This document shows, in pieces, positions 22,084-39,507 of a stretch of 64,000 nucleotides of DNA. Under the pieces are notes generated by a model. That model had not been told where the DNA came from. It searched no databases and saw only the letters and a list, made by a program, of their open reading frames with translations. Both the position numbers and the translations under genes were made by a program. Positions within the stretch are counted from its first letter, which is position 1; every line of letters begins with the position of its first letter. This DNA is from a virus, in IMG/VR virus record IMGVR_UViG_3300020182_000023, positions 14,697 through 78,696 of that record. One strand, 5' to 3'.

Positions 22084-22302
22084 ATGGAATTTTCACTATT
22101 TTTAAACAACGGAGAACAAATAAATATAAACACAGAAGATTATACAGACCCTACTAGAACGGTTATGGAATACCTTATATCAATGCTAGAATATTATGAA
22201 ACAGAATTATCCTTCTGTGATGAAGAAAATGAATTACTGTATCAGCAAGTGGAATATTGTAAACTACTTACTGATTTGTTGAAGCCAGAGATAAAGAATT
22301 AA
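22084..22302 (+). CDS. Hypothetical acidic protein; stop codon overlaps attC-like site A
   Basis: 72 aa; its TAA is part of the TAAC. Confidence 0.55.
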   Translation: MEFSLFLNNGEQININTEDYTDPTRTVMEYLISMLEYYETELSFCDEENELLYQQVEYCKLLTDLLKPEIKN

Positions 22303-22348
22303 CACCAAGCTAAGAAGCGTTTTAATGCTTTCTTAGCGGCTGTTATGC
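22297..22348 (+). repeat. attC-like hairpin A (short type)
   Basis: TAAC-accaa-gctaagaagcgtt..aatgctttcttagc-ggct-GTTATGC. Confidence 0.65.
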
Positions 22349-22418
22349 AACGTTTTAATGTTGCAATTTTTAACCCTTATTAACATTAACCAATAGATAA
22401 TATTAATACATTTGAATT

Positions 22419-22850
22419 ATGATACAAATAGATAATATAGAAATAGACCCCACTGCATTAGTAGTGTTAGGAGGGTTTGCATTAGGGATGATTATAGCCC
22501 CTTTTGATTCCGCATTAATAAAAAGAGAATACAGGCTAGAATGGCTGTATCACACAGCTAAGTTTATGCTTATGTTCTTGTTAGGTGGTGCGTTATTACA
22601 CCACGTTCTACCTAAAGATGGATACTTCGTTCCAAGACTTATAGCTTGCTCATTATCATACAGCATTTCCTTTGACTTGTTTTTAAACTTTTTAAGAGGC
22701 AAGGAGATATTTTACATAGGACAAACTGCTTTTCTTGATAAGATGGCTAGAAAGTACCTTAAAACGGGTTTAAACTATATTTTCGTAAGGTTATTAGCTG
22801 TGTTTTTGATTGGAGTAGGAATAGTAATACATATTTTATTAAATAATTAA
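22419..22850 (+). CDS. Multi-pass membrane protein
   Basis: 143 aa with about 4 hydrophobic segments; FD..LN.LRGK..FYIG.TA.LDK motif. Confidence 0.6.
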   Translation: MIQIDNIEIDPTALVVLGGFALGMIIAPFDSALIKREYRLEWLYHTAKFMLMFLLGGALLHHVLPKDGYFVPRLIACSLSYSISFDLFLNFLRGKEIFYIGQTAFLDKMARKYLKTGLNYIFVRLLAVFLIGVGIVIHILLNN

Positions 22851-22853
22851 GAT

Positions 22854-23039
22854 ATGAATACAACTAAAATAACATATGAGGGTTACGGTAAGAAAATTTC
22901 CGTTGAATTAGACCACGAAGATGTATCTATACAAGAAGTATTAGACGCTGTTGTTTCAATGCTTTACGGAAGTGGATTTCATAAGCAGACAGTAGATAAC
23001 GGAATAATAGAATTAGCAGAAGAATTAAACGATAAATAA
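22854..23039 (+). CDS. Hypothetical protein
   Basis: 61 aa ORF. Confidence 0.5.
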   Translation: MNTTKITYEGYGKKISVELDHEDVSIQEVLDAVVSMLYGSGFHKQTVDNGIIELAEELNDK

Positions 23040-23048
23040 TTAAATAGA

Positions 23049-23249
23049 ATGGATAAGAGATACATTATAGAAGATTTAGGCTTAAAGAAAGCTAAGGATT
23101 ACAAGGGAGAGGTTTATTTTTACCCTGACGAAGAAGATTTTGTTGGGTTCTTTATAGAATCAGAAGATAAAACTCACTTTGTGTTTATACCGTCAGAGCC
23201 AATAGACAGCTTATCAAGTAAAACGGCTTTTGAAAGAATATTTAAGTAG
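23049..23249 (+). CDS. Hypothetical protein
   Basis: 66 aa ORF. Confidence 0.5.
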   Translation: MDKRYIIEDLGLKKAKDYKGEVYFYPDEEDFVGFFIESEDKTHFVFIPSEPIDSLSSKTAFERIFK

Positions 23250-23367
23250 ATATGAAAGATATGGTTTTATTGGTACTGTTAGCTGTATGTATAGTTGAAT
23301 ACAGAGAAAGACCTAGAATAGACTTCTGAGGGAATGTTTATTTGTGGTACGGTAGATATAATCGTAA

Positions 23368-24018
23368 ATGTATAAATATATTATAATGGAATATAAGATA
23401 GAAAAACAAGCTAAAGGCACTCGAATACTTTTCGGGGATGAGGTAAGAGATAGATACACGCTATTAAATAAAATGATAGCTACCGTTGAGTCTTACGGGT
23501 TTCAAGGAATACAACTGCCTAGCATAGAGCCGTCTGAAATATACATAGACAAAGCAGGGAGAGAAGTGCTTAATCAAATGTGGGTGTTTCCAGATAAAAA
23601 AGGAAGGAATGTATGCTTACGCCCAGAGGCAACGGCTACCGTTCAGCTAATCGCTAATCATTTCTGGCAAGCTAAAAAAGAAATAAGAGTTTGGTATTTT
23701 GAGAAATGCTGGAGATACGAAAAACCGCAAAGGGGCAGATACAGAGAATTTTGGCAGTTCGGTTGCGAAGTAATAAACCCATCTACTGATTTAATAAAAG
23801 AAGAATTAATAGACATATCTAAAGAACTTTGTGAACTTCAAACAAAGGATATAACGATAGATTATTCCGTAACAAGGGGATTGGGCTATTATACAGATAA
23901 AGGCTTTGAATTACGCTGTAAGCAACTAGGAGCGCAAGAACAGATATGCGGAGGTGGTTCTTATGATAGAGGAATTGGGTTTGCCATTGGGTTTGATAGA
24001 TTAATGCTTTGTAAATAA
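23368..24018 (+). CDS. Minimal histidyl-tRNA-synthetase-like catalytic domain (likely start 23386)
   Basis: KGTR, LRPEATA, motif 2 WRYEKPQRGRYREFWQFGCE, His loop RGLGYYT, GAQ.QICGGG.YD, motif 3 GIGFAIGFDRL; no insertion or anticodon-binding domain. Confidence 0.85.
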   Translation: MYKYIIMEYKIEKQAKGTRILFGDEVRDRYTLLNKMIATVESYGFQGIQLPSIEPSEIYIDKAGREVLNQMWVFPDKKGRNVCLRPEATATVQLIANHFWQAKKEIRVWYFEKCWRYEKPQRGRYREFWQFGCEVINPSTDLIKEELIDISKELCELQTKDITIDYSVTRGLGYYTDKGFELRCKQLGAQEQICGGGSYDRGIGFAIGFDRLMLCK

Positions 24019-24024
24019 ATAATT

Positions 24025-24255
24025 ATGAAAACAAAATTGATTAGAAACAGTACGCTCCAAGACTTAATGGATGCTGCGGAGTATTCTTCTTACTCAGAAA
24101 CACTAGAAGGTGTTAAACGGGCTAAAATAGGCTTAGATATATACGAGAAAGTAAAGGGTGGCTGGAAGCAAATCAGCGATTCGGGTATTATACCTAAGAA
24201 GTGTAACGTTATATCTCTTGATGCTAATGGCGCAAGCAGAATGAAGCGGAGGTAA
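24025..24255 (+). CDS. Hypothetical protein; stop overlaps attC-like site B
   Basis: 76 aa; TAA lies within TAAC. Confidence 0.5.
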   Translation: MKTKLIRNSTLQDLMDAAEYSSYSETLEGVKRAKIGLDIYEKVKGGWKQISDSGIIPKKCNVISLDANGASRMKRR

Positions 24256-24344
24256 CGGTTTGTGTATGAGTAGTGTGGCTTTGCTCTTATTTTCAACTTA
24301 CAGATAAACTTATTTAGCCACATTACTTATACACTTTTTTATAG
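24250..24344 (+). repeat. attC-like hairpin B (long type, degenerate 3' core)
   Basis: TAAC-ggttt-gtgtatgagtagtgtggct...agccacattacttatacac-tt-TTTATAGGTA (GTT expected). Confidence 0.55.
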
Positions 24345-24364
24345 GTATGTAAAATTTACGGAAT

Positions 24365-24511
24365 ATGAATAAAGAAAATAATTATTGGAAAGGAATAATG
24401 GTTGGATTTGCAGTAAGCACAATTGTTTGGTGTACTTTATGGGCATTTGTTATTGGAAAAATAGATAAGGTTCACAAACAAGAACTTGATTATATAATAG
24501 AAAAACACTAA
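24365..24511 (+). CDS. 48-aa membrane protein, cassette between sites B and C
   Basis: MNKENNYWKGIMVGFAVSTIVWCTLWAFVIGKIDKVHKQELDYIIEKH; flanks ttataggtatgtaaaatttac and gtaaattttattacctataa are near-complementary. Confidence 0.55.
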   Translation: MNKENNYWKGIMVGFAVSTIVWCTLWAFVIGKIDKVHKQELDYIIEKH

Positions 24512-24537
24512 ACAAAGTAGGTAGTAAATTTTATTAC

Positions 24538-24590
24538 CTATAACACCCGTCTAAGAAACGCTTTAATGTTTCTTTTGGCGGCTGTTAGAT
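24538..24590 (+). repeat. attC-like hairpin C (short type)
   Basis: ctaTAAC-acc-cgtctaagaaacg..tgtttcttttggcg-gct-GTTAGAT. Confidence 0.6.
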
Positions 24591-24654
24591 AAAGTTTAAC
24601 AACCATTTTACCCGACAGGGGAAATTGGTTAAGGAACATTAATAGATTTGAATT

Positions 24655-25029
24655 ATGAAACTACACAAAGACATATTATACTCCGTAGGAGATGAAATTG
24701 AGATAGATAACATTAAATACACCATAGAACTCGCAGGATGGGGTAAAATACGACTACATAAGAAATGCTGTGGTGATATGTCCGCTGCCAAAGAAGTAGA
24801 TGACGTAACAGCTATACGGGGCTTAGATATAATAATAGCACTTAATGAAGAAGGTGCTACTGAAGAGGTAGAGGAAATTAAAAATAACTTAGAATGTCAT
24901 TTTAATGAAATTGAGTGTAAATTTAAATCTGAAGAATCTAACCTTAATGACAAAATCCGCATATTAGAAGCGCAGAATAAAGATTTAAAGAATGAACTAG
25001 AGGATGATAAGTCTTGGTGGATATGGTAG
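24655..25029 (+). CDS. Hypothetical coiled-coil protein
   Basis: 124 aa after a TAGATTTG box. Confidence 0.55.
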   Translation: MKLHKDILYSVGDEIEIDNIKYTIELAGWGKIRLHKKCCGDMSAAKEVDDVTAIRGLDIIIALNEEGATEEVEEIKNNLECHFNEIECKFKSEESNLNDKIRILEAQNKDLKNELEDDKSWWIW

Positions 25030-25030
25030 C

Positions 25031-25060
25031 GATACGATAAGATACGATAAGATACGATAA
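25031..25060. repeat. Tandem repeat (GATACGATAA)x3
   Basis: Three exact 10-bp copies plus a degenerate fourth, between convergent genes. Confidence 0.85.
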
Positions 25061-25109
25061 TAATACGAAAAAGAGTTTAAGAAATGAAAACAACAGAAAG
25101 CTCGGTTAA

Positions 25110-25556
25110 CTACTGGGCTTTTTTGTTTCGCCCCCTTAAGGCTCTTTGCACCGTACTCAAGCTAACATCCAACTCATTCGCCAACTCCTGCTTAGAATAT
25201 TCTGGAAATAATTTATTTAACTCCAAAATCTTATTAACCATAGCCTTCCTTAAACTCTTCTTAATTAACCTAGCTTTCCTATTCTTAGATGTCCTTAGCC
25301 TAATAGCACGGCATTCTCGCTGCTTCAACTCCTTCAACCACATAGCTAACCAAAAATGTAAATAAGCAGAAGGCTTCCTATAATCATCAAACACCCATAT
25401 ACTATGAACCTCCCAACTGCCACCCAACTTGTGATACCACCTGTAATTAGAGTCCCTATCCCTTACAATTTTATGATTCTCTATCCTACATAAAGAAGCT
25501 AAATCATCATCAGACCAACTCGTACTTAAATTAACATCTTCCATATTCAAAAACAA
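25110..25556 (-). CDS. Protein with C-terminal HTH
   Basis: SKQELANELDVSLSTVQRALR. Confidence 0.55.
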   Translation of the reverse strand: MFLNMEDVNLSTSWSDDDLASLCRIENHKIVRDRDSNYRWYHKLGGSWEVHSIWVFDDYRKPSAYLHFWLAMWLKELKQRECRAIRLRTSKNRKARLIKKSLRKAMVNKILELNKLFPEYSKQELANELDVSLSTVQRALRGRNKKAQ

Positions 25557-25662
25557 ATATACCTAAACCATAAGGCTATAAAAAACAAAATAACACTCCT
25601 TAACATCTATCAATAAGATAATTAATTACTTTAGCTGTATGAAAAATAAAAAGTAAATAATT

Positions 25663-26010
25663 ATGAACTCAGTAGAAGAATACGAAAAAGAAGAACGGGA
25701 AATAAAAAAACTAATAGATGAGCTTAAAACAAGAAAGCCTACTATAAAAGAGATAAAAAAAGTATTGGACTTTAAAATACTACATAAGGACTCTAAGCAA
25801 AAATGGGTAATAAACGAATACTTCCCGTTAGAACACCACGAAAAACATTCAACATCATACCTAGTGCTTAAACCTTACAATAAGGGGTGGTTTTATAGAA
25901 ATGAATCATCGCACGACTACGGTATGCAAATAAACCCAGAGGTGTTTGAGGTGAAAATGACAGAACAAGAGGTAGTAGATAAGTATGTTATTAGTGATTA
26001 TGGATTGTAG
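25663..26010 (+). CDS. Hypothetical protein
   Basis: 115 aa ORF. Confidence 0.55.
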   Translation: MNSVEEYEKEEREIKKLIDELKTRKPTIKEIKKVLDFKILHKDSKQKWVINEYFPLEHHEKHSTSYLVLKPYNKGWFYRNESSHDYGMQINPEVFEVKMTEQEVVDKYVISDYGL

Positions 26011-26161
26011 TTTAATCCCCCGCAATACACAAAGGAAATAATATGAAACACATAGGATATATACCAAAAGAAACAGAAAAGAAACTACATAGAGAAGTAT
26101 GCAGTGAACTTACAGAACAAGACTACAACGGAAAAGATACTTACCACTTATACATAGAACA

Positions 26162-26506
26162 ATGGAATATAACTCAGACTTTAAATACGACCTAAAAGTA
26201 GGGCAAATAAAAGAAAAAGAACTAGCACATATACTCCAAAATGAAAAAATAGAAGTAAAAACAGACCTGCAAGCTCACAAAACAGGAAATATATTTATAG
26301 AATACCACTCAAGAGGTAAACCATCAGGACTAGCAACATCAGAAGCTAAATACTACTGCATAGCTATACAAGAAATACTAATAATACTACCAGCCAAAAA
26401 ACTTAAAAAACTATGCAGAAAATACCTAAACACCAACAGAGATAAAAAAGGCGGAGATAGCAACTCCTCAAAAGGAATACTCCTGCCAGTAAAAGATTTA
26501 TTTTAA
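26162..26506 (+). CDS. Small PD-(D/E)XK-like phage protein
   Basis: F..DL..GQ..E, IEVKTD, TGNIFIEY.SRGKPSG..TS.A motifs. Confidence 0.55.
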   Translation: MEYNSDFKYDLKVGQIKEKELAHILQNEKIEVKTDLQAHKTGNIFIEYHSRGKPSGLATSEAKYYCIAIQEILIILPAKKLKKLCRKYLNTNRDKKGGDSNSSKGILLPVKDLF

Positions 26507-26557
26507 AAATTTTGTATGTATGTAGAAGTGGGGGATAATATAATATTCAACCCCGCC
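26507..26557. repeat. Imperfect direct repeat, copy 1 (flanks HNH gene)
   Basis: aaattttgtatgtatgtagaagtgggggataatataatattcaaccccgcc resembles 27721-27772. Confidence 0.5.
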
Positions 26558-26581
26558 ACCTCCAACAAACCAAACCCGAAT

Positions 26582-27679
26582 CTATTCTGCTTTATTACCG
26601 TGACCACCAATACCATTCTCTTTCTTGTATTTTGAAATCTTAATCGCTATGTTAGATTGGGATGTTCCTAACTTCTCTGCTATTTTCCATTGTGGCATTG
26701 TCTTATTCATTTCGTACAATTCTTTATAGTCGTATTTTCTGTTTCTTTTATCTAAGCCGTTAAGCCTAGCGCCAAATCTTTTTATAGCTGTTTCAACAGC
26801 CCCGTCACCACAATTATAATACTCAGTTAGCATTTTTAGCGTGTACCTCTTTTCTACTAAGCTTAAAAACTCATCTTTATCTGCTATACCATAGGGCTTA
26901 ACATAAATATCTTCACTTCTAAGCTCACCATACTTAATAATAATCCTTTTAACAGCACCAACACTAATCTGATACTTATCAGAAATAAACTCTATGCTAT
27001 TACCAGATTCGTAGGACTTAGAAAAAACCTTACCCCTACAATCTTTGTAGTTGATATTTCGAGTTATCCGTACAATAGTAGGAGGAGATACATTAAACAT
27101 ATCAGCTATTTCCGTATTACTAACCAACTCTTCAGAATAAAGCCTTTTAATTTCCCGCTGCTCATCATAGGAGAAATTAGTAAACTTATCCTTAATAACC
27201 CTATTACTCCTACCATCAAATACGCCTAGTTCAACCAACAGTGATTTAATAACAGCGCTTGATACATTATACTGATTAGCTATATAAGTTATAGGGTAAG
27301 ACTCATACATATCAACTATATTCTTCTTGTCAGAATCACTAAACGAATACTTAGTCCCAGATAAGTAACCAGCATCTTTCTGCCTTTTTCTATTTTCCTC
27401 TGGAGTAACCCACTCTAAGTTACTAGAGGCATTATTAAGCCTATTAAAGTCCTTATGGTCAACTTCGTGTCTATCGCTAGGAGGTAGCCCATTAAAAGCT
27501 AGACAAACAAGTCTATGTACATACTGAGAGTGCCTGCCCTTTTCATTATGCCTAACTCCAACGGATAAGTACTTACCACCCTTTAATTGAGGCTTTAGTA
27601 CATTACCTCTCTTCTTATTATAAACATTTCCTAATTCATCTACTTGGTACTTATCGTACATTGGTATATTCTTTTTCAT
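26582..27679 (-). CDS. HNH homing endonuclease with multiple C-terminal HTH repeats
   Basis: YQVDELGNV, YVHRLVCLAF, EVDHKDFNRLNNASSNLEWVT..EN, then repeated IA..YNVS HTHs. Confidence 0.8.
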   Translation of the reverse strand: MKKNIPMYDKYQVDELGNVYNKKRGNVLKPQLKGGKYLSVGVRHNEKGRHSQYVHRLVCLAFNGLPPSDRHEVDHKDFNRLNNASSNLEWVTPEENRKRQKDAGYLSGTKYSFSDSDKKNIVDMYESYPITYIANQYNVSSAVIKSLLVELGVFDGRSNRVIKDKFTNFSYDEQREIKRLYSEELVSNTEIADMFNVSPPTIVRITRNINYKDCRGKVFSKSYESGNSIEFISDKYQISVGAVKRIIIKYGELRSEDIYVKPYGIADKDEFLSLVEKRYTLKMLTEYYNCGDGAVETAIKRFGARLNGLDKRNRKYDYKELYEMNKTMPQWKIAEKLGTSQSNIAIKISKYKKENGIGGHGNKAE

Positions 27680-27720
27680 ATATTATATTTTTGTAGGTAC
27701 AAATATAAGAAAAATAATTT

Positions 27721-27772
27721 AAATTTTGTGTGTATAGAGGGGTGTGGTATAATAAATAGTTCAATGCCCGCC
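27721..27772. repeat. Imperfect direct repeat, copy 2
   Basis: aaattttgtgtgtatagaggggtgtggtataataaatagttcaatgcccgcc. Confidence 0.5.
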
Positions 27773-27943
27773 TCAAACCCAATAAAAAACGGCTCAATAT
27801 TACCCGAGTGGGTCAATATTTCAACTTCAAAAACATAACCACCACCACTACATTACACCACGTTACACCATAGCATTTATATCTACATTCCTTGCCTATG
27901 CTATGCGCTTGATGCTATTGTATTTAACATTTATTAACAATGT

Positions 27944-28264
27944 ATGTATCTTTTTTATATTACATTTGTCGCAGTATCCGATGTTGGATGCTACAATTTA
28001 ATACTATATATTATGAATATTGAAATAGAATACTTGAGAACGGACAAATCGCCTTGTTACGGTGGATTCAATGTACAGAACGTTTACGAAGTGAACACCG
28101 TGACAAATGGCTTTAGTAACCGATATACCGTATTTTGCAGGATTGCAGGCTTAAACGGTGGTCAAATATGGAATGAGCCAGTAAGCTACGAAGCGCACGG
28201 CAATAACGAAGAGACGCTTATCGAAAGTGCTGTATTTGATATTTTCGAAGATAACATAGGGTAA
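27944..28264 (+). CDS. Early hypothetical protein (true start probably about 28013)
   Basis: ORF downstream of a TACATTTG box at 27961. Confidence 0.5.
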   Translation: MYLFYITFVAVSDVGCYNLILYIMNIEIEYLRTDKSPCYGGFNVQNVYEVNTVTNGFSNRYTVFCRIAGLNGGQIWNEPVSYEAHGNNEETLIESAVFDIFEDNIG

Positions 28265-28287
28265 ACAAACACAAAGCCCCGTTCATA

Positions 28288-28524
28288 TTGTTCGGGGCTA
28301 ATTTAATACTAAACAAGATGACAAATTCAAAAGGACAACCGTTAACCTTTGGTTTCAGGTCAAACACAAAGGTATTGAAGTACAAAAGCAAAAGAGCTAC
28401 AAACAAGCTGGTAGACTCTTACAATGAAGCTAAAATAGACGCATACAAGGCGCATTGGGATAGCTTTAATACTGACCTATATAAGGAATTAATTGCAATT
28501 AAATTAAATAGTTTAAACAGATAG
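28288..28524 (+). CDS. Early hypothetical protein
   Basis: ORF, probable ATG at about 28318. Confidence 0.5.
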   Translation: MFGANLILNKMTNSKGQPLTFGFRSNTKVLKYKSKRATNKLVDSYNEAKIDAYKAHWDSFNTDLYKELIAIKLNSLNR

Positions 28525-28685
28525 GATTATGAAAACTTATTATTTCAAAGTAACGAATAACGGATTGACAAAATTAGTAGGGATGTGCGCTAGCTCTAAA
28601 AAGAAAGCAATGAAGTATGTATTAAGACATCCTTCGTTCAACAATCCAATAGTAAAACATATGTAAACCCCTAAACACTAAAAAC

Positions 28686-28720
28686 AAAAGCCTTGCTATT
28701 AATTTAGCAGGGCTTTTTTT
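28686..28720 (+). terminator. Intrinsic terminator
   Basis: aaagccttgcta-ttaatt-tagcagggc-ttttttt. Confidence 0.75.
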
Positions 28721-29287
28721 ATGCGCTAAACTTTCTGTTCATACATTCTATTTAGTAAACAAATTAGCCGTAAAAATATCTCTTATTCAATATCTAATAT
28801 TTGACACGATGACTTTTTTAAGGGGCTAAAATAGTCATGCATAATTTTAAAATAACCGTCAAACCTATGCTGTCATTGGTCTGTAGAAGGTTTTGGGTTT
28901 TGACTTTTGTTACGACCTTATATAGGTAGTAAAAGTTTTTTTTGTTTGTTGATGTGTTTAGGTGTAAATAGGGTATAATTCCACACACACAAACTACTCA
29001 CATTTAAACCAAATACAATATTTAGCCAAGTCAAGAATATAATTATTTTGTCCTATGTTTAGTACATTATGTTAAGTAGAGTAACTCTATTGAGTATATT
29101 ATTATTCATTAGATTGGTTATTTTTATTGCTATTTATAGCGTATTCTATTAGTTTAATTCTAGTTTAGAATATAAACCAAGTGAATAACAGCAAGTTAGA
29201 TGTTTATATGTTAACGAATGTTAAAAAGTATTGCGTATTGAAATATTGGTTGTAGTATTGCTTTCGTAAACAAATAAACAAAACAAG

Positions 29288-29467
29288 ATGAAAAAGTATA
29301 AACAAAATTTAAGAGTAGAAAACAAAAAAGTGTTTAGTTACAATACGCACGTTGCAACAATTGAGAGTGATAATTTAATGCAGTTGGGCTATTGGTCTAT
29401 GACTACTCAGAAGCACATTAACTATGTGGCAAACGAATTTAATTTAAATTTAGTTAAGCCTAGTTAA
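29288..29467 (+). CDS. Small early protein (missed by ORF track)
   Basis: MKKYKQNLRVENKKVFSYNTHVATI...GYWSMTTQKHINYVA; SY.T.VA / S.TT.KHI pattern common in phage early genes. Confidence 0.55.
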   Translation: MKKYKQNLRVENKKVFSYNTHVATIESDNLMQLGYWSMTTQKHINYVANEFNLNLVKPS

Positions 29468-29512
29468 ACACTTTATAGCCTTATTAGGCGCAAAATATTA
29501 AAAACTATAATA

Positions 29513-30888: not shown

Positions 30889-30914
30889 GGGGAGAAGGAA
30901 GAAATTTAAAACTT

Positions 30915-31881: not shown

Positions 31882-31909
31882 GGATTATTAACAAATAAAT
31901 TTAATTGAA

Positions 31910-32186
31910 ATGGCTGAAATTAATTATAGTAAAGAGAATTGTTGGAGAATAAAATACATTCCCAATAGATTGCACTAAAGAAAAAAATAGACATGGTGAT
32001 TGGCGAATTGTAGTACCCAAAATGGCAATGAGTTATGACGTTTTTATTGATATAGAAACATCTATTACACACATGGAAAGTTATGGTATTAGATACAATT
32101 ACATAGAGGGTGTCGCTAGTATGAATGTAACGGATAAAGGACTAAAAGAATTACAAGAAATGACTGACGTTATACGCATAGTTTAG
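31910..32186 (+). pseudogene. Disrupted cassette ORF
   Basis: The ATG frame stops after 22 codons; a long open frame NTFPIDCTKEKNRHGDWR...IRIV* lacks an in-frame start at its 5' end. Confidence 0.4.
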
Positions 32187-32192
32187 CATTAC

Positions 32193-32288
32193 ACAAAACG
32201 GGTAGGTATATGATTAGTGTGCGATTGCACTAACCTTTGAATTAAAACAAATATTAACTAAGCACATTAACTATATACATTGTTAGGG
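32193..32288 (+). repeat. attC-like hairpin E (long type)
   Basis: acaaAAC-gggtag-gtatatgattagtgtgc...gcacattaactatatac-att-GTTAGGG. Confidence 0.6.
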
Positions 32289-32308
32289 TGCGTTTAAATT
32301 AAATTATT

Positions 32309-32512
32309 ATGACTTACGAAGACTTTTTATTCTCACAATTATTTATGAACCACGTTGAGAATAACGAAACACAATATCAAGAACTTGAATATGACTTGAT
32401 ATTCCCCGAAGTATTAAAGCACCAAAATCTATTCTTAAAATCTAATTACAATTTAGACGTTTGTAGCGAATACGATTGCATAGTAAACTACCTTCTTAAT
32501 GAAGTGAAGTAA
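32309..32512 (+). CDS. Cassette-borne hypothetical protein
   Basis: 67 aa; cassette starts GTTAGGGT and ends ACCCTAAC. Confidence 0.6.
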   Translation: MTYEDFLFSQLFMNHVENNETQYQELEYDLIFPEVLKHQNLFLKSNYNLDVCSEYDCIVNYLLNEVK

Positions 32513-32516
32513 TGAA

Positions 32517-32610
32517 CCCTAACGTTTAGTATAAGATTAGTGCGCTAAACTATAAACTTTGAATTAAGCACTAACATAACCAAGCGCATTAATTTTATAC
32601 ATTGTTATGC
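32517..32610 (+). repeat. attC-like hairpin F (long type)
   Basis: CCCTAAC-gttta-gtataagattagtgcgct...agcgcattaattttatac-att-GTTATGC. Confidence 0.75.
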
Positions 32611-32628
32611 GCTTTTAATTAAATTATT

Positions 32629-32814
32629 ATGGACTACAAATTAATTGACAACATTGAAGTAGATGGAATAGACACTAAAGACTATCCAGATTTTTGTGAC
32701 GCATTTATAGCAAGTGCGAAATATAATGGAAAACCAATGACTGACGAGCAATTAGATGAATTAAATGAGGATGGCGGATTTGTTTATAAATGTGTGGAAA
32801 ATCATTTGTTCTAA
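32629..32814 (+). CDS. Cassette-borne small acidic protein (DGID..DYPDFCDAFI family)
   Basis: 61 aa; cassette starts GTTATGCGC and ends GCGCATAAC. Confidence 0.65.
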   Translation: MDYKLIDNIEVDGIDTKDYPDFCDAFIASAKYNGKPMTDEQLDELNEDGGFVYKCVENHLF

Positions 32815-32818
32815 TTGC

Positions 32819-32911
32819 GCATAACACCAAGCTAAGAAACGTAAAGCGCAGCACAATGTTTAATCTTAGCACAATACTATATTGCTTTATGGTGTATAGG
32901 TTGTGTTAGCA
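32819..32911 (+). repeat. attC-like hairpin G (hybrid)
   Basis: GCATAAC-accaagctaagaaacgtaaagcg (same left arm as site J)...GTTAGCA. Confidence 0.6.
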
Positions 32912-32988
32912 AATCGTTTAATTATGAATTTACAAGCAACAGATATATTATTAGCAGTATTTAAAGCAATAGCAATTACATTTTACAT

Positions 32989-33216
32989 TTGCTCAATGGT
33001 TTTATTTTTAATATACTTAGCATTATGAATGATTTAAACAAGGCAGATATTATTTCGCACGGCGAGATATTGAAGAAGGAACTAGAACAACAAGGAGCAA
33101 AAGAATTAACAGCTCACAGCGATTTAGGAGTGGCTTTAACGGCTAAACAAATGGATTTGGTGTGTGAGTATAAAGAAGTAATTAAAACGCTTAAACAATT
33201 AAAAAAAAAGATATGA
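32989..33216 (+). CDS. Hypothetical protein (probable ATG about 33025)
   Basis: ORF. Confidence 0.5.
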   Translation: MLNGFIFNILSIMNDLNKADIISHGEILKKELEQQGAKELTAHSDLGVALTAKQMDLVCEYKEVIKTLKQLKKKI

Positions 33217-33353
33217 TATACAAATTTATATATTGGTTAATGCTTGCTTCATTAGGAGCATTAGCTTGGGGAGTTATTATAGGGTTTATTTATACCGTCC
33301 TTTGTGGGATGGCGGAATTTATAGGATTAATTTAAATACCTATATTTGCAACC

Positions 33354-33440
33354 TAAGAGCGTGAGACCTCAACTTAAAACATTTAGATAATTCCTTGCCG
33401 AGAACCCTTCGGTCTCACGCCTTCTTGGTGGGGGATTATC
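33354..33440 (+). ncRNA. Putative kissing-loop leader RNA, copy 2
   Basis: gag-CGTGAGAC-ctc; gataattcctt.gccgagaa..GTCTCACG..ttcttggt.gggggattatc; directly after TATATTTG (33341-33348). Confidence 0.55.
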
Positions 33441-33458
33441 GACTTTATTATAATTATT

Positions 33459-33944
33459 ATGGCTGATAGAACACACGGAATGTCTAGCACTAGGGAATAC
33501 AAGGTATGGAAGACTATAAAAGATAGGTGCTATGGAATTAATAGCGATTGCTATGACAGATACGGAGGCAGAGGTATAGTTATGCAGTATAATTGGATTA
33601 ACAACTACATAGAATACTATAATTATGCAAGTAAGATAGATGGATTCTCAGACCCTAATAAATCAATAGATAGAATAGATTCTAATGGAAACTACGAAGA
33701 GGGTAATATTAAATTCTCTACCCCTAGTCAACAATGCGCTAATAGAAGGCTATTCAAGAACTCTAAATCAGGCTACACTGGCGTAGTTAAAAAAGGAAAG
33801 AAATACGAGGCTACCATAAGCGTTAACGGTAAAAGGATATATATAGGAAGGCATAAAGACCCTAAAGTATTGGCTATAATGAGAGACGAATATATAATCA
33901 AAAACAATCTTACCGAGTACCCACTTCAAATTTTAAATAGATGA
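33459..33944 (+). CDS. HNH-AP2 homing endonuclease
   Basis: THGMS.TREY..W..IK.RC, YGGRGI, SIDRIDSNGNYE.GN, SGYTGV...Y.ATI...GKRIYIG (AP2). Confidence 0.8.
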   Translation: MADRTHGMSSTREYKVWKTIKDRCYGINSDCYDRYGGRGIVMQYNWINNYIEYYNYASKIDGFSDPNKSIDRIDSNGNYEEGNIKFSTPSQQCANRRLFKNSKSGYTGVVKKGKKYEATISVNGKRIYIGRHKDPKVLAIMRDEYIIKNNLTEYPLQILNR

Positions 33945-35899
33945 ATAAAGTATCAGTATTCAAGCACTATAAAGACACTCACAGCCCTATACACGCAGAT
34001 GTATTTGGTATCTTAGAAAAGATAAAGACTGGAGGTAACGAGAAAGAACTAATCGAACACATAAGAACCTTAGAAGGTGATGAATATAAGAAAGAGAAAC
34101 TAAAACTGCCGTTAATTTGCTTTGGTGGTACGTTTGGGAATAGAAGTAAAGACGGAATTATTAACGGTTCGGGTATGATTCCATTAGATTTTGATGAAGG
34201 CACTGAGGATGAACTTAATGAACTTAGAAAAACATTAGAGTCTCAGCCATACACAATAGCAGTATTCTCTTCGCCACGTTTAAGAGGTAGATTTAAAGCT
34301 CTTATACGCATCCCTGTTACATCTTCGGATGAAGAGTTCAAAAAGTATTTTGCCGCCTTAAAAAAGGAGTATAAGACCATAGACCCTAGTGGTAAAGATA
34401 TTTCCAGAGCATCGTTCTTCACCTACGACCCTGATATTTACATTAACAAAGATGCTACGGTGTGGGATATTAAATACGAAACACCTAAGCAAAAGAAAAC
34501 AACAGAAAGATATACAGTTAGAGATTGGGATTCTGTTACCAATGCACTAAAGAAAATCGAGACAGCAGAAGATGGGTATAAGCATTTAGCTAGAACTAAG
34601 ATTGCATATTTAATGGGAGGTTGGATTAGCGCAAAGCAAATTAACTACCAAGAGGCAATGAAATTATTAGAGGATGCCGTTGCTAAGAATACAACAGACC
34701 TTGATGCTGCAATGAAAACCGTTAAGGATTGTGTACAAGCAGGAATGAACGCCCCACTTAATATGTCAGAGCAAAGAGAGGTATTAAAACTATCCGTTGC
34801 AGCCCCTAGAAGGTATAAGCCTATGTCTGAGGTATGGGATGATGTACAGAATTTCTATGAAACGGGCTATAAGCGTGGTTGGGATGTTGGGTTTAATTGT
34901 GCTAAAGAATATCTTAGCATCTTAGAGGGTAGTACTAGTTATGTTTATGCTGCGCCTGCTGCTGGTAAAACTCAGGTTTGGATGGAGATACTTATGAATA
35001 TAACCATTGACAGAGTTAGGAGTGGGGAAGATTTTTACAATCAAATATTCACGCCCGAAACGGGAGATGTAGCACAAGTGTATGGGGAGTTAATTAGTAT
35101 TCACGCTAAGAAATCTTTTGTTGGTAAATATAAGATGTCGGAAGATGAAATGAAAGCATCTGCTGATTTTGTATCTAAGTACTTTTTGATATTAGACTAC
35201 GAAGGAGATACGGCTGATATGAAAGGAATATTAACACAAGTGGAGGCTGCTGAAAGAGAATTTGGAATACATATTAATACGGTTACTATTGACCCGTTAA
35301 ACTACCTATCTTTTGATGAGGGTAGATATAGTAGAAGGGATTTATCCATTGCTAAGGATTTAGATTTATTCCTTGCTGATGCCCGAAAAAATAAAAGGCA
35401 TAACTGTATAATAACCCATGCACGCGACCAGCAAGCAATTAAAAATAATGATGGTCAATGGTATTATCCGTTAGTCAGCCCTAGAATGATTTTAGATGGG
35501 CAACAGTTTTTTAGAAAAGGTATGTTAATGATTAGTATATACAGACCATTAGATATAAAGAATGAGCCTTTAGCTGATGATAACGGTTATCCCGCAGAGC
35601 AGAACGAAACCCAAGTATGGATACAGAAAGCTAAACCTAAAGGCTGCGCTAAGGTAGGTATGTTTAAATTATTCTACGACTTTAAGGCTAATAGATATTA
35701 CGAGAAAGACGAACAAGGTAGAGAGTTCTTTGCTTGGGGAGTACCTAGACAGCAAGAAGATAAATTTCCGCCAATACAAAAGGAGATAAAGCAAATACCC
35801 CCCGTTAAGAAAGAAGAGGACTCATTAAAAGCTAACACAAGTTTTGATGAGCCAACCCCAATAATAGATGATATTGAAATAATGGAATCCCCATTTTAA
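33941..35899 (+). CDS. Primase-helicase fusion (BT4734/VirE-N-like primase + SF4 helicase)
   Basis: K.KLP.ICFGGTF, PLDFD, F.SP...GRFKAL, D.SGKDISRA.F..YDP; Walker A AAPAAGKT, VTIDP, ITH. Confidence 0.8.
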   Translation: MNKVSVFKHYKDTHSPIHADVFGILEKIKTGGNEKELIEHIRTLEGDEYKKEKLKLPLICFGGTFGNRSKDGIINGSGMIPLDFDEGTEDELNELRKTLESQPYTIAVFSSPRLRGRFKALIRIPVTSSDEEFKKYFAALKKEYKTIDPSGKDISRASFFTYDPDIYINKDATVWDIKYETPKQKKTTERYTVRDWDSVTNALKKIETAEDGYKHLARTKIAYLMGGWISAKQINYQEAMKLLEDAVAKNTTDLDAAMKTVKDCVQAGMNAPLNMSEQREVLKLSVAAPRRYKPMSEVWDDVQNFYETGYKRGWDVGFNCAKEYLSILEGSTSYVYAAPAAGKTQVWMEILMNITIDRVRSGEDFYNQIFTPETGDVAQVYGELISIHAKKSFVGKYKMSEDEMKASADFVSKYFLILDYEGDTADMKGILTQVEAAEREFGIHINTVTIDPLNYLSFDEGRYSRRDLSIAKDLDLFLADARKNKRHNCIITHARDQQAIKNNDGQWYYPLVSPRMILDGQQFFRKGMLMISIYRPLDIKNEPLADDNGYPAEQNETQVWIQKAKPKGCAKVGMFKLFYDFKANRYYEKDEQGREFFAWGVPRQQEDKFPPIQKEIKQIPPVKKEEDSLKANTSFDEPTPIIDDIEIMESPF

Positions 35900-35910
35900 A
35901 ACAAATAATT

Positions 35911-36150
35911 ATGAAAAAATTAACAAAAATACATTACGAAAAGAACATCCTACCAACGTATTCAGTCGAATGGAAGGAAGTTCTTAAGGATGACGAAACA
36001 AACAAAAAGTTTATAGAAATAGCTAATGAATCAGTAGTAAATGAACTTAAGATTAAAATAAAATTACTGAAATTAATGCCAACTCCAGATGAGTATAAAA
36101 AGGAAGCATTGAGCTACTTGGAATCAATGTTAAATGAGTATACTATTTAG
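35911..36150 (+). CDS. Hypothetical protein
   Basis: 79 aa ORF. Confidence 0.5.
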   Translation: MKKLTKIHYEKNILPTYSVEWKEVLKDDETNKKFIEIANESVVNELKIKIKLLKLMPTPDEYKKEALSYLESMLNEYTI

Positions 36151-36222
36151 ATTACATTAATAAATGTTAAAAAGCTTGTCAATCAGAAAGTTAAATAATA
36201 TATTTGAGTAAAATTTAGAGAT

Positions 36223-36447
36223 ATGAGCTTAACTAAAAGAAACATAGAGCAATTTAATTCTGGCTACGATGGAATGGATGATGAATACTTCTATCGCAAA
36301 GCACAAGAAGCAGAATACAGAGAAATGACAAATGAAATACCGTACTTACAGCGACTTAGGATTGAAGATGGAAAGCTTAAACAAGCTATCGAAGCATCAG
36401 CTAGAGCAGCTACTGGAAGTAATGACAAGGCATCACGGTTACATTAA
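36223..36447 (+). CDS. Hypothetical protein
   Basis: 74 aa after a TATATTTG box. Confidence 0.5.
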   Translation: MSLTKRNIEQFNSGYDGMDDEYFYRKAQEAEYREMTNEIPYLQRLRIEDGKLKQAIEASARAATGSNDKASRLH

Positions 36448-36638
36448 TAGTGAGTTTACAGAGAAAAGAAAGAAAGTAATTGAACATTTAATAAAAGAAA
36501 GATGAACTACGATGATTACAAGCTATCTAATCCTTACGATGACGAGGATGTATTTGGAAATACAATTGATAGTGAAGAAGAGGAAAACGAAGCTGCTGAT
36601 AGAGCAGATGATTATAATGATGAATTAAAACTAGAAGA

Positions 36639-36837
36639 ATGAAAAATATATACAAAGCATTAGCTGATTTTCAGCAAGAAGTCAAGTATAACATACCAGT
36701 TTTTATATAATACTACTTACATTTGTTGTATGGAAAAATGGAAAAATATAAAAAATTTTGAAGGTATTTATAAGGTTTCAAATAAAGGTAATGTAAAAAG
36801 CCTAAAAAGAAAGAGAATTATTTTTATTAAACATTAA
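36639..36837 (+). pseudogene. ERF 5' remnant plus NUMOD4 remnant
   Basis: MKNIYKALADFQQEVK.. then TACATTTG and MEKWKNIKNFEGIYKVSNKGNVKSL..*. Confidence 0.6.
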
Positions 36838-36845
36838 ACAAAAAA

Positions 36846-37448
36846 ATGAAGAATTTAGCTAAAGCGGTACTAGCCGTAATGAAAGACGTTAAGGGCGTTG
36901 AAAAGAGTATGACTGTTGGTAGCGGAAACTACTCTTATAAAGGGGTATCGGACTACGAGGTAAAGAAGATTTACAATAAGTCTATGGCGGCTAATGGGCT
37001 GTGTATTTTGCCTATTGGAATAGTAGACGATGTAGATATTAATAGATATGAAGACCAATACGGTAAGCAGAAAATGAATGTGTTTACTAGGGTTACTTCT
37101 ACATATCTTTTACTACACGAAAGCGGGGAATCTCAAGAGTTGGTAGGTTACGGTCACGGAGTAGATACGGGAGATAAAGCAGCGGGAAAGGCTACTACAT
37201 ACGCAATGAAGTACGCTTTATTATACACATTTATGACTCCTACGGGCGCAATAGATGATTCCGATACAACCCATTCAAATGACCACGAAGCACCCGTTGT
37301 TGCACCTAAGAAAGAAGCGTTAACAGAATCTCACCCACGCTATGAAGGGGCAAAGAAAGCGTTAAGCGAAGGTAAAACTACATTAGAAGTAATTAAACAA
37401 ACATTCACCGTAAGTAAAGCGGTAGAAAAACTATTAACAAGTAAATAA
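36846..37448 (+). CDS. ERF-family ssDNA annealing protein
   Basis: LLHESGES, G.D.GDKAAGKATTYAMKYALL..F.....DD.D. Confidence 0.85.
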   Translation: MKNLAKAVLAVMKDVKGVEKSMTVGSGNYSYKGVSDYEVKKIYNKSMAANGLCILPIGIVDDVDINRYEDQYGKQKMNVFTRVTSTYLLLHESGESQELVGYGHGVDTGDKAAGKATTYAMKYALLYTFMTPTGAIDDSDTTHSNDHEAPVVAPKKEALTESHPRYEGAKKALSEGKTTLEVIKQTFTVSKAVEKLLTSK

Positions 37449-37449
37449 A

Positions 37450-37983
37450 ATGGAAGAATGGAGGGATGTTTCGGGGTATGATGGCAGGTATCAAGTTAGT
37501 AATTTAGGTAGAGTAAAGAGTCTTGATATGATTATAAATAATAGGCATAATAGTACATCTAAAAAGAAAGGAAGGATATTAAAACAGCAACCTAACAAGA
37601 AGGGTTATCTTCAGGTAAGATTATGCTACAAAAAAACACATAAAAGCTGTAGGGTGCATAGATTAATTACTGAAGCTTTTATCCCTAATCCAGAGAATAA
37701 GCCTCAAGTAAACCATATAAATGGAGTTAAGGATGATAATAGGGTTGAAAATTTAGAATGGTGTACAAATAAGGAAAATCAAATACACGCAACAAAAAAT
37801 GGGCTATTTAATCCTAATTTTGGAGAAGAGCATCATATGTCTAAGTTGACAAATAATCAAGCCAAGCACATTAGGCTACTTAAATCAAGAGGTTTTACGC
37901 TAAATAAATTATCTAAAAAATACAAACTGTCAATGACAGCGATAAGCAACATAGTAAATAATAAAACTTATATAAATATCTAA
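37450..37983 (+). CDS. NUMOD4-HNH homing endonuclease
   Basis: EEWRDVSGYDGRYQVSNLGRVKS, VHRL..EAFIPNPENKPQVNHINGVKDDNRVENLEW. Confidence 0.9.
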   Translation: MEEWRDVSGYDGRYQVSNLGRVKSLDMIINNRHNSTSKKKGRILKQQPNKKGYLQVRLCYKKTHKSCRVHRLITEAFIPNPENKPQVNHINGVKDDNRVENLEWCTNKENQIHATKNGLFNPNFGEEHHMSKLTNNQAKHIRLLKSRGFTLNKLSKKYKLSMTAISNIVNNKTYINI

Positions 37984-38002
37984 CAAGTAAATAATAAATA
38001 AG

Positions 38003-38374
38003 ATGAGTGAATTAGTAATGAAGGGTACAATAGAGAAAATCGGAAGCCTTGAACAAATATCCGATAAGTTTAAGAAGGTTGATTGGGTGCTTGATACGGG
38101 TGGAGATTATCCGCAGAAAATAGCGTTCCAAACCATTCAAAAAAACGCCGACAGCTTCGTTAAGCATAATAAAGTTGGTGACGTAGTTGAAGTTAAGTTC
38201 AACGTAAAAGGCAGAAAATGGGTCAACCCACAAGGAGAGGCTAAGTATTTCAATACACTTGAGGCTTGGTTTATCTCAAAGGCTGATGGTCAAAGTGGAG
38301 CAAGTACGCCTAACAAGGAGTTCGAGAAGCAAACGGCAGCGCCAATAGCTGAGGATAATTCACTCCCATTTTAA
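38003..38374 (+). CDS. ssDNA-binding protein (DUF3127 type)
   Basis: YPQKIAF, VGDVVEVKFNVKGRKW, KYFNTLEAW, acidic LPF tail. Confidence 0.8.
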   Translation: MSELVMKGTIEKIGSLEQISDKFKKVDWVLDTGGDYPQKIAFQTIQKNADSFVKHNKVGDVVEVKFNVKGRKWVNPQGEAKYFNTLEAWFISKADGQSGASTPNKEFEKQTAAPIAEDNSLPF

Positions 38375-38467
38375 TCTATGATTAACAATTACACAAGCAA
38401 AGCAGAGGAGGTTCTAATTGAGCCTTCTTCTGCATTGTCTTTAGCTGTTTAAAATATATTTAAAATT

Positions 38468-38647
38468 ATGAAAGAAGAAATAGAAAGTAAACTATCCCCG
38501 CAACAGATGGTAGTAATAGACTCTTTAAGAGAGCAATTAGGAGATGACACAGTTAATATACTCCTAGAGTTTGGTTATGAAATAGGTAAGGCAGATGGAG
38601 TAGAGATGTTCTTTCAGCAGACTAAAGATATTTTAAAGGAAGCATAA
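38468..38647 (+). CDS. Hypothetical 59-aa protein; stop overlaps attC-like site H
   Basis: MKEEIESKLSPQQMVVID...KEA*, TAA within GCATAAC. Confidence 0.5.
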   Translation: MKEEIESKLSPQQMVVIDSLREQLGDDTVNILLEFGYEIGKADGVEMFFQQTKDILKEA

Positions 38648-38748
38648 CGTTGAGTATAAACGGTCGTTACGGATGTGTAGATATGTTTCACAACGTTTAG
38701 AGTAAAAACTGCATAGCGTAGCGGAGTTGTTTTTAAACTTTGTTATGC
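38642..38748 (+). repeat. Composite attC-like element H/I
   Basis: GCATAACgttgagt..., second TCACAACgtttagagtaaaaac...gtttttaaactt-t-GTTATGC. Confidence 0.55.
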
Positions 38749-38767
38749 GTTGCGTAAAATTAAGATT

Positions 38768-38995
38768 ATGACACCAAAAGAAAAAGCAAAAGAATTACAG
38801 AATAAACACCTTTACTGCTATTTAAACCCTGCTTACCCATTACACGATAGATTTGATGTTATTCAAGCGTCTGAGCAAGCATTGGTAACAGTAAATGAAA
38901 TACTTGAAAGTTTTTTAATAGATATTCCAGACCACCAATTTAAGTTTTGGGAAGAAGTTAAGAGCGAATTAAACACCATAATATTAGGAGAATGA
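38768..38995 (+). CDS. MTPKEKAKEL-type small protein (cassette-borne)
   Basis: MTPKEKAKEL...AL.TVNEIL...FWEEVKSEL, starting 20 nt after GTTATGC. Confidence 0.6.
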   Translation: MTPKEKAKELQNKHLYCYLNPAYPLHDRFDVIQASEQALVTVNEILESFLIDIPDHQFKFWEEVKSELNTIILGE

Positions 38996-39239
38996 AAACA
39001 CCACTACAGGAATTAATGGAGTATATGGAGCAAAACCAATATTTCATAGGAATGATTTATTGGCTAAGTATAATGAACTTATTGAAAAAGAGAAACAAGA
39101 GTTTATAAGTTGTTATATTAGAGCTATGACAAAAGAATATCTAAACCCTATGCCGAGAAAATATTATTATGAAGTTGCCGAAGATTATTATTATACTTTT
39201 ATTAACCCATTAGGCAAAAATGAGAAATCCTATAAATAG
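38992..39239 (+). pseudogene. Frameshifted small phage gene
   Basis: MKTPLQELMEY...FIG then -1 frame NDLLAKYNELIEKEKQEF...AEDYY; one base missing near 39050. Confidence 0.45.
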
Positions 39240-39274
39240 CCACTAAACGGTAATTAGTGGCAAAATATAGAACT

Positions 39275-39403
39275 ATGAAAAAGAAACTAATTGAGATACC
39301 CGAAGAAGTATTTAATCAAATAGAATTATCCGCAAAAAAGAATGTAAGGAGTGTAAATAAAGAGATAGTGTTTCTTCTTACGAGTGCGGTGGGTAAAAAA
39401 TAA
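39275..39403 (+). CDS. Arc-like ribbon-helix-helix protein
   Basis: MKKKLIEIPEEVFNQIELSAKKNVRSVNKEIVFLL. Confidence 0.65.
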   Translation: MKKKLIEIPEEVFNQIELSAKKNVRSVNKEIVFLLTSAVGKK

Positions 39404-39407
39404 TTGC

Positions 39408-39467
39408 ATATAACACCAAGCTAAGAAACGTAAAGCGAAGCGTATGTTTCCTTAGCGACTGTTAACG
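39408..39467 (+). repeat. attC-like hairpin J (short type)
   Basis: ataTAAC-accaa-gctaagaaacgta..tatgtttccttagc-gact-GTTAACG. Confidence 0.65.
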
Positions 39468-39507
39468 CACGTTTTAATGTGCGGAATATTAAAAACTTAA
39501 AAATACA

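Follow-up and report, generated by a model that had tools for sequence, protein, structure and literature searches.

The analysed DNA, referred to below as the window, is a 64,000-nt stretch (bases 14697-78696) of a 78.7-kb viral contig of IMG/VR, IMGVR_UViG_3300020182_000023, which is estimated to be 74% complete. Between positions 20 and 46 kb it carries a plus-strand early/replication block, in which ten hairpin-forming sites, A to J, all on the plus strand, are located between plus-strand open reading frames (ORFs). Scans with PHROG and Pfam profiles identified in this block a replication initiator, a short HisRS-like ORF, a BT4734-type primase-helicase and Erf, as well as a DUF3127 SSB-like protein, exonucleases and at least six HNH endonuclease genes; the structural genes are on the minus strand, on both sides of the block. 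Since the relatives of the primase all come from phages of Flavobacteriia (at most 25% identity, the closest cultured phage by this protein showing 25%) and TAnnTTTG boxes lie ahead of several start codons, the host is most likely a marine member of the Bacteroidota. The subject of this study is the ten sites, which, with a confidence slightly better than even, we regard as attC-type structured recombination sites that form, in a phage, a cluster of attC sites lacking an integrase (CALIN) and serve in site-specific DNA exchange.

Two types of site can be recognized. Family 1 (A, C, G and J) starts with TAACACC-NNN-CTAAGAARCG, is 46-54 nt long and folds into a base stem of 5-6 bp, a small bubble of the CCAA/GAC type, a second stem whose 3′ arm bears a one-base bulge, and a variable loop. 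Class II (B, E, F and H; D is collapsed) shows the order AAC, a spacer of 5-6 nt, GTRTAW...WTAYAC, a spacer of 3-4 nt and GTTA, and its 5′ motif occurs seven times on the plus strand of the whole contig and never on the minus strand. A TAAC...GTTA frame encloses A, C, E, F, G, H/I and J as well as all relatives, the exceptions being B, with TTTA as its 3′ box, and D. The sites and the units associated with them are as follows.

22300-22345, plus strand: site A, family 1; base stem with TAAC, then a small bubble, a stem of 12 bp whose 3′ arm has T and C bulges, and GTTA.
22346-22365, plus strand: second hairpin behind A, with loop GTTTTAAT.
24253-24345, plus strand: site B, class II; TAAC, 5-nt spacer, 19-bp stem GTGTAT.../...ATACAC with 2-3 G:T pairs, TTTT spacer, degraded 3′ box TTTA.
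24256-24543, plus strand: single-gene cassette B; body B, ORF 24365-24511 (48 aa) and a 3′ end of about 20 nt.
24541-24587, plus strand: site C, family 1; body and downstream sequence recur behind two different upstream contexts.
31864-31873, plus strand: site D, collapsed; TAAC followed directly by GTTGAG.
32196-32285, plus strand: site E, class II; AAC, 6-nt spacer, GTATAT...ATATAC, ATT, GTTA.
32286-32523, plus strand: interior and end of cassette 1; ORF 32309-32512, start GTTAGGGT (32282), end ACCCTAAC (32516-32523).
32520-32607, plus strand: site F, class II; TAAC, GTTTA, GTATAA...TTATAC, ATT, GTTA.
32608-32825, plus strand: interior and end of cassette 2; ORF 32629-32814, start GTTATGCGC (32604), end GCGCATAAC (32817-32825).
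32822-32908, plus strand: site G, family 1 with an inserted segment.
38645-38745, plus strand: sites H and I (I starting at 38691); two hairpins between TAAC (38645) and GTTA (38742).
38648-39413, plus strand: three-ORF block moving with bodies H/I; ORFs 38768-38995, 38992-39108 and 39275-39403.
39411-39464, plus strand: site J, family 1; same body behind at least eight different upstream contexts.
39465-39479, plus strand: second hairpin behind J, with loop GTTTTAAT.

The motif CGTTTTAATG is found on the plus strand at 22318, 22351 and 39470, in the related loci L005, L007, L036 and L063, and at positions 30035 and 30935 of the record of Polaribacter phage P12002L. It makes a hairpin loop, GTTTTAAT with a closing C-G pair, on stems that differ in sequence; the loop is present within bodies as well as in the second hairpin that follows GTTA-N6. 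Such a constant loop on variable stems suggests a hairpin that may be bound by a protein.

Comparison with relatives shows that units are gained and lost at TAA|C. The related contigs G002 and G004 are 99.87% identical over 1.5 kb and differ by one 284-nt unit, which consists of body B and ORF 24365-24511 (48 codons), is cut between two TAA|C and leaves body C in place; cassette B is present in the window and in G002, and absent in G004. Contig G001 (locus L020) is devoid of bodies H/I and of the three ORFs behind them (38649-39409), which lie between ATAA|C repeats, and retains J, the joint being geneX-ATAAC directly onto body J. In G002 (locus L019) J is missing too, and two genes are fused as TAATG. 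Cassette 2 occurs in a foreign context in L056, whose homology to the window begins exactly at the TAAC of F (32520), and precedes three different bodies in the window, L056 and L020. Public contigs provided the further joints 22303|22368, 24255|24651 and 31870|32578, the first of which is that of a variant of site A (runs X5/X6) with its body swapped from directly after TAAC. In near-identical genomes and public contigs alike, identity at the junction amounts to only 4-6 nt. The junction partners H and J, like B and C, have only (A)TAAC in common, which is too short for homologous exchange. Other mosaic breakpoints fall at start codons, and the ordinary terminator/leader hairpins at 30920, 33340 and 28275, which stay with the upstream gene, are elements of a different kind from the sites. 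The long relatives G002 and G001 are mosaics with blocks of 92-99% identity.

At 41594, the flanking genes of the window overlap without a site, and L065 (at 9452) and L067 (at 9231) carry a family-1 site at this place, ahead of a homologue of the 141-aa ORF 41594-42019. It makes a third locus at which a site is either present or absent.

The original prediction, made from the letters of the window, held that related hairpin bodies share downstream rather than upstream sequence, which is indeed the case for E/F and A/J. The same linkage emerged from non-redundant metagenome occurrences paired at a body similarity of at least 0.75: the downstream flank was common to 22 of 65 same-body pairs and the upstream flank to 2, with 20 pairs sharing the downstream flank only and none the upstream flank only. 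Because the search pattern was anchored at the 5′ edge of the body, ascertainment bias should have favoured upstream linkage, the opposite of the result. J-type bodies were found in at least eight upstream contexts and in four downstream contexts only, and one body subtype has the same gene behind it and five different upstream cassettes ahead. Together with the indels (insertions or deletions) that remove a body along with the following ORF, this linkage upholds the proposal that the hairpin travels 5′ of its gene. A canonical layout, with the body 3′ of the gene and the crossover at G|TT, predicts the opposite of every linkage and indel case seen.

The family-1 pattern was found at 13 IMG/VR and 45 metagenome loci; AT-rich members with a matching 3′ arm amount to 19 loci in both collections together. 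In 185,579 prokaryote genomes the pattern gave 20 matches, none with a matching 3′ arm and one of them AT-rich (a Ureaplasma metagenome-assembled genome, MAG), which we read as chance. Accordingly, the sites look phage-specific, and no chromosomal platform was found in these genomes.

Further evidence comes from the ends of the cassettes. When the bases before each TAAC were compared with those after the preceding GTTA (20 non-redundant family-1 sites, 147 GTTAs), a perfectly complementary run of at least 5 nt was present at an upstream GTTA, 197-777 nt away, for 8 of the 20 sites, against an expectation of 0.14-0.36. The controls gave 0/138 for downstream GTTAs and 1/20 for the site's own GTTA. 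In the window, the ends pair over 9 bp in cassette 2, over 8 bp in cassette 1 and over about 20 nt in cassette B (24526-24544 with 24339-24359), and imperfectly at D, where GTTGAGTGTA (31868) faces TACACAAAAC (32190). Distal N6 pairs are perfectly Watson-Crick, and some local hairpins use G:T wobble. The same complementarity is seen in P12002L, where the cassettes of gp54, gp53 (Mom-like) and gp35 (methyltransferase) start with GTTA-N4-5 and end with N'-TAAC. Complementarity of N6 and N6' is to be expected if the cassette was once a circle with one complete hairpin. Since the body stays with the downstream gene, the junction lies at TAA|C and N6 pairs with N6', the cassette is C-body-GTTA-N6-leader-ORF-N6'-TAA, and the site, on the coding strand, is 5'-N6'-TAA|C-body-GTTA-N6-3'.

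The recombined bottom strand of attC is cleaved at 5'-AAC in the 5′ R box and has its extrahelical bases on the opposite arm; it has more G:T pairs than the top strand (1.24 versus 0.39) (Nivina et al. 2016, PMC5027507). In the window, inverted AAC...GTT triplets are found at the base of an imperfect hairpin, with a bubble and an extrahelical base opposite AAC and with complementarity across the cassette. The crossover AAC is 5′ and faces the arm with the bulges, and G:T pairs are in excess on the plus strand; the plus strand of the window is therefore the equivalent of the canonical bottom strand and at the same time the coding strand, only the ORFs being inverted. Indeed, a canonical cassette read on its bottom strand is C-body-GTTRRRY-antisense ORF-RYYYAA, and here the ORF is in sense. 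Thus, of the reversed polarity originally proposed, the flipped orientation of gene to site stands, and the site itself is unreversed, all three bottom-strand properties being on the plus strand. The canonical layout, in which the ORF is on the top strand and the site 3′ of it, is not found, as all cassette ORFs lie on the strand with AAC at its 5′ side.

Two of the asymmetries behind this assignment, the G:T pairs and the bulges, had been noted originally at a few sites. Folded with single-stranded DNA (ssDNA) parameters, B and F each have two G:T pairs on the plus strand and none on the minus strand, as had been claimed, and H/I have three and none. Over 22 distinct bodies from the window and its relatives, the mean per body was 1.14 on the plus and 0.45 on the minus strand (Wilcoxon p=0.023; the bodies are related, so these are not 22 independent trials). 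An alignment of 13 family-1 members, in which 98% of cells are paired, contains two compensatory positions and one G:T pair (columns 20/35) that is invariant in all members. One stem position runs through G-C, G:T and A-T across relatives, a series to be expected if selection acts on plus-strand pairing. The single unpaired bases were likewise correctly placed: those of A (T and C) and J (C) are all on the 3′ arm, as is a one-base bulge in 12 of the 15 family-1 members that fold as one hairpin, the 5′ arm having only the AA/CCAA bases of the internal loop. Sliding-window folding over the whole window was too noisy for use.

CALINs have been described in virulent phages, with two or three predicted sites per phage, and IntI1 recombined five of the six sites assayed, among them P12002L_attC2 and two sites of Pseudoalteromonas phage PH101, PH101_attC1 and PH101_attC2 (Qi et al. 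2023, PMC9892861). The arrangement in PH101 was termed typical of bacterial arrays, and P12002L_attC1 was called by HattCI alone; the polarity of ORFs versus strand was not addressed (Qi et al. 2023, PMC9892861). In Table S3 of that study (PMC9892861), the bottom strands correspond to the forward primers, a convention confirmed by the aadA7 control. On this basis, the published bottom strands of P12002L_attC1, PH101_attC1 and PH101_attC2 are the coding strands of the flanking ORFs, gp36/gp35 in the case of P12002L_attC1. The latter is homologous to a class II site of the related locus L007, with 47/64 positions matching. The two copies of PH101 attC2 have the body and the leader (about 70 nt to ATG) in common and differ in their upstream flanks. 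P12002L_attC2 was called in the opposite direction, and its two genomic copies lose identity exactly at the coding-strand TAAC. Homology of PH101_attC2 to J was considered and dropped (50/80 positions, versus 43/81 for the opposite strand), and only a shared layout is claimed.

Several observations weigh against a phage CALIN acting in site-specific exchange. No tyrosine recombinase (PF00589) was detected on six related contigs (G000-G005, 19-81% complete); on G000, IntI (TIGR02249) and PF00589 gave no match at E<=1, so that the integrase of a complete integron was not found there, and the Y1 transposase profile (PF01797) gave no match on G000. PHROG/Pfam scans of about 40 ORFs (the larger ones and a few small ones near J) revealed HNH endonucleases, Erf, exonucleases, a DnaA-like helix-turn-helix protein and a weak GIY-YIG match, and no recombinase. 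At the curated cut-off of TIGR02249, IntI is present in 113 of 401 genomes of a phylum sample versus 1 of 301 of a class sample, drawn from the phylum and class of a Cyclobacterium MAG, its class being taken by us as Bacteroidia; a classical host IntI is thus unlikely. The blind scan for perfectly matching ends, on this genome alone, showed no enrichment (2 versus a null mean of 4.85), and the complementarity signal accordingly depends on anchoring at known sites. Not all breakpoints are at TAA|C: that of L050 falls at the 3′ GTTA, that of L006 within the body, and another (Y1 versus Y2) behind the second hairpin. A circular intermediate was not observed. Logan contigs give alternative joints and cannot show circles, strand or RNA ends. 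In ssDNA folding, the plus strand is ahead in G:T pairs, and its mean advantage in energy over the minus strand is small and not significant (-0.47 kcal/mol, p=0.14, 22 bodies); at A and C the minus-strand fold is the more stable one, by 1.1-1.4 kcal/mol. Moreover, the plus strand is the sense strand, and its G:U pairs could reflect selection at the RNA level. The lower size limit of attC sites is about 57 nt, and the family-1 bodies (46-54 nt) are shorter. Finally, the closest published relative, P12002L_attC1, was not recombined by IntI1 (PMC9892861).

The IntI contrast between phylum and class is far more uneven than RefSeq-based surveys suggest. Upstream of four IntI genes of the wider phylum sample (genomes of 49-60% GC), a simple R-box scan found no attC arrays, which is uninformative on the host.

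The rarity of IntI in the likely host class and its absence from the contigs, together with the failure of IntI1 on P12002L_attC1, would also suit the strong version of the original prediction, namely a mirror-image class of sites recombined on the top strand by a non-integron enzyme under rules opposite to those of IntI. This is improbable, since the arm of the bulge, the G:T excess and the position of the body are all canonical relative to the crossover AAC, and nothing is mirrored. For the same reason, the polarity does not imply a distinct recombinase, as had been argued; a different recombinase is nevertheless likely on the other grounds of the missing integrase and the rarity of IntI. 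In this respect, Xer offers a parallel: at attP of the CTX phage, the substrate of this tyrosine recombinase of the host is a single strand of phage DNA folded into a hairpin. As a lead only, GCGCATAA|C at 32817 is similar to the XerC arm of E. coli dif; no dif-like central region was identified.

The crossover signature, the exactness of the junctions and the attC-like anatomy lead us to favour site-specific DNA exchange. Its main rival, to which we accord a rather low though appreciable probability, is that the units are regulatory cassettes akin to promoter early stem-loops (PeSLs): a terminator or attenuator hairpin would be fused to the promoter and leader of the next gene, the G:U pairs would be selected in RNA, and the repeated modules would offer portable homology for Erf/exonuclease or host recombination, as in T4-type phages. 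PeSLs combine a stem-loop with an early promoter upstream of ORFans, contain G-T stem pairs, mediate indels between relatives and have been connected with mini-circles (PMC2839356). In the window, hairpin and leader recur before different genes (E/F and A/J), as they do in the copies of PH101 attC2; Bacteroidota-type TAnnTTTG boxes lie between body and ATG, at A and C only; and the phage encodes Erf, the SSB-like DUF3127 protein and exonucleases. Folding with RNA parameters puts the sense strand clearly ahead at B, G and H/I (for H/I, -31.9 versus -15.8), and a hairpin at about 26511, behind a minus-strand HNH gene, folds better on the minus strand (-21.8 versus -11.6), following the sense of its own gene. 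A PeSL-like module would thus explain why the hairpin is 5′ of the gene, why the sense strand has G:U pairs and why leaders are repeated. It would, however, explain neither the 4-nt junctions nor the pairing of N6 across the cassette rather than within the site, and the conserved AAC...GTT frame is not predicted. Extended homology is not found, the junction partners B/C and H/J sharing only (A)TAAC (4-6 nt), and most sites lack a U-tract and a recognizable promoter between body and ATG. The attC-type and PeSL-like readings are compatible if the body has both roles.

Alternatively, the hairpins may be purely RNA elements, such as terminators, RNase III-type processing stems or 5'/3' panhandles, and their coincidence with junctions may reflect selection for intact transcription units. 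The sense-strand G:U bias with its invariant pair would fit, bona fide terminators with compensatory changes are found nearby (28689-28720), and the two ends of a monocistronic RNA could be brought together if GUUA-N6 paired with N6'-UAAC. Yet this explanation, which we judge to have little chance of being correct, gives no reason for indels that end exactly at TAA|C in near-identical genomes or for the conserved AAC/GTT, and the distal N6 pairs are perfectly Watson-Crick while some local hairpins wobble. Furthermore, no Rfam family matched, either over the whole window at the gathering threshold or over 21500-40000 at E<=1, and the family-1-like sites of PH101 were recombined as DNA by IntI1 (PMC9892861). 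RNA runs with window sequence were looked for, and none was found.

The segment 28689-28720 is a classical intrinsic terminator with a stem and T7, showing a compensatory change of C-G to T-A and a shifted G:T relative to its relatives. Intrinsic terminators were rejected as an identity for the sites: J, C, E, F and G have no T-run, T5 is found solely behind the second hairpin of A, and the true terminators at 28275 and 28689 look different. Other mobile elements were discarded as well. An IS200/IS605-type transposon is at odds with the lack of a PF01797 match on G000 and with cassettes devoid of a hairpin at the 3′ end; a terminal-inverted-repeat transposon, with an indel that includes body B, outside the 20-nt inverted repeat; and insertion into a hairpin loop, with the order GTTA...TAAC around the ORF, the reverse of the one predicted.

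On the CALIN reading, the coding strand would fold as ssDNA and a tyrosine-recombinase-like enzyme would cleave it in the 5′ AAC, the bulges of the 3′ arm marking the strand, as in integrons. The enzyme would probably not be a classical IntI; it may be encoded by the host or be a novel phage protein. Being ahead of the ORF, the body would be able to carry a leader or promoter and, once transcribed, may also attenuate the upstream gene. Integron cassettes are usually promoterless, ahead of their site and tied to IntI-bearing bacteria. It is tempting to speculate that virulent marine phages of Flavobacteriia run an integron-like cassette exchange of their own without IntI, in which an as-yet-unrecognised enzyme, either a host Xer-type recombinase or a novel phage protein, cuts coding-strand hairpins at TAA|C and the units carry site and leader before the gene. 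We consider this extended scenario possible and somewhat doubtful; if true, co-infecting phages could trade self-expressing accessory genes, for instance methyltransferases.

The present data document natural and recent cassette turnover in virulent phages with a classical crossover signature, and suggest how the early regions of marine phages, mosaic and rich in ORFans, may arise. They also correct the orientation assumed for phage CALINs, because tools that assume a gene upstream of attC would pair each site with the wrong gene. Which enzyme moves phage attC cassettes has now become a concrete and testable question, for which Polaribacter phage P12002L, with its methyltransferase cassettes, is a cultured model.

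Other parts of the early block are also variable. The 216-aa ORF at 23368-24018 contains the class II HisRS catalytic core alone (PF13393, E=2e-27) and likewise behaves as an optional unit, since a contig of run X5 skips 23375-24024. Relative to 22419-22850, L019 (G002) has a 160-nt ORF inserted exactly at ATG 22419, and the 143-aa membrane ORF of this locus has a 366-nt internal deletion in G002. The HNH/NUMOD4 homing endonuclease gene at 26582-27679 (minus strand), whose downstream hairpin is the one at about 26511, is variably present, a run X5 contig skipping 26557-27804. At 36643-36845, the Erf N-terminus common to the relatives (start at about 36640) stops at 36682 and is followed by an HNH fragment (36730-36837) and by a second, different Erf start at 36846, which looks like an allele replacement tied to a homing endonuclease. 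A perfect 14-bp inverted repeat, GTTAATTTGCTTTG / CAAAGCAAATTAAC, at 34111 and 34642 (531 nt apart) inside the primase-helicase ORF may be due to chance. The window contains no tRNAs. A near-identity search of a phage collection yielded HNH fragments only, and locus searches by primase and by ORF yielded no further lineages.

Known systems invite comparison. The sites resemble canonical attC in the AAC at the 5′ base, the unpaired bases on the opposite arm, the bubble between the stems, the variable top and the G:T excess, and in that the pairing partners of R-box bases lie across the cassette rather than in the site itself. Unlike in canonical integrons, the ORF is on the recombined strand and the site, 5′ of the gene, may carry the gene's leader; intI, attI and Pc are lacking; the family-1 sites are short (46-54 nt); the box is TAAC/GTTA plus up to 6 (once about 17) further complementary bases; and the phages are those of a bacterial class where IntI is rare.

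The likeness to the PeSLs of T4-type phages (Arbiol et al. 2010, PMC2839356; Comeau et al. 2014, PMC4122927) lies in the G-T hairpin with a leader upstream of small ORFans, in plastic early regions, in indels between close relatives that end at modules and in the circular intermediates proposed. PeSLs differ in using about 50 nt of shared sequence and in having a sigma70 promoter as a defining feature, whereas the sites described here use TAAC only and have the AAC...GTT frame and cross-cassette pairing.

The closest counterparts are the phage CALINs of P12002L and PH101, likewise AAC...GTT hairpins between small ORFs of virulent marine phages without an integrase. P12002L_attC1 and its L007 homologue, whose architecture is that of B, E and F of the window, have the loop TCGTTTTAATG and the ATT-GTTA end in common, and PH101_attC2 has the family-1 layout ATAAC-NCC-NNGCTAAG...TTAGC-NAC-TGTTA. 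To the description of these CALINs by Qi et al. 2023, the present analysis adds a set of about ten sites, gain and loss at TAA|C at the level of populations, and the statistics of downstream linkage and end complementarity.

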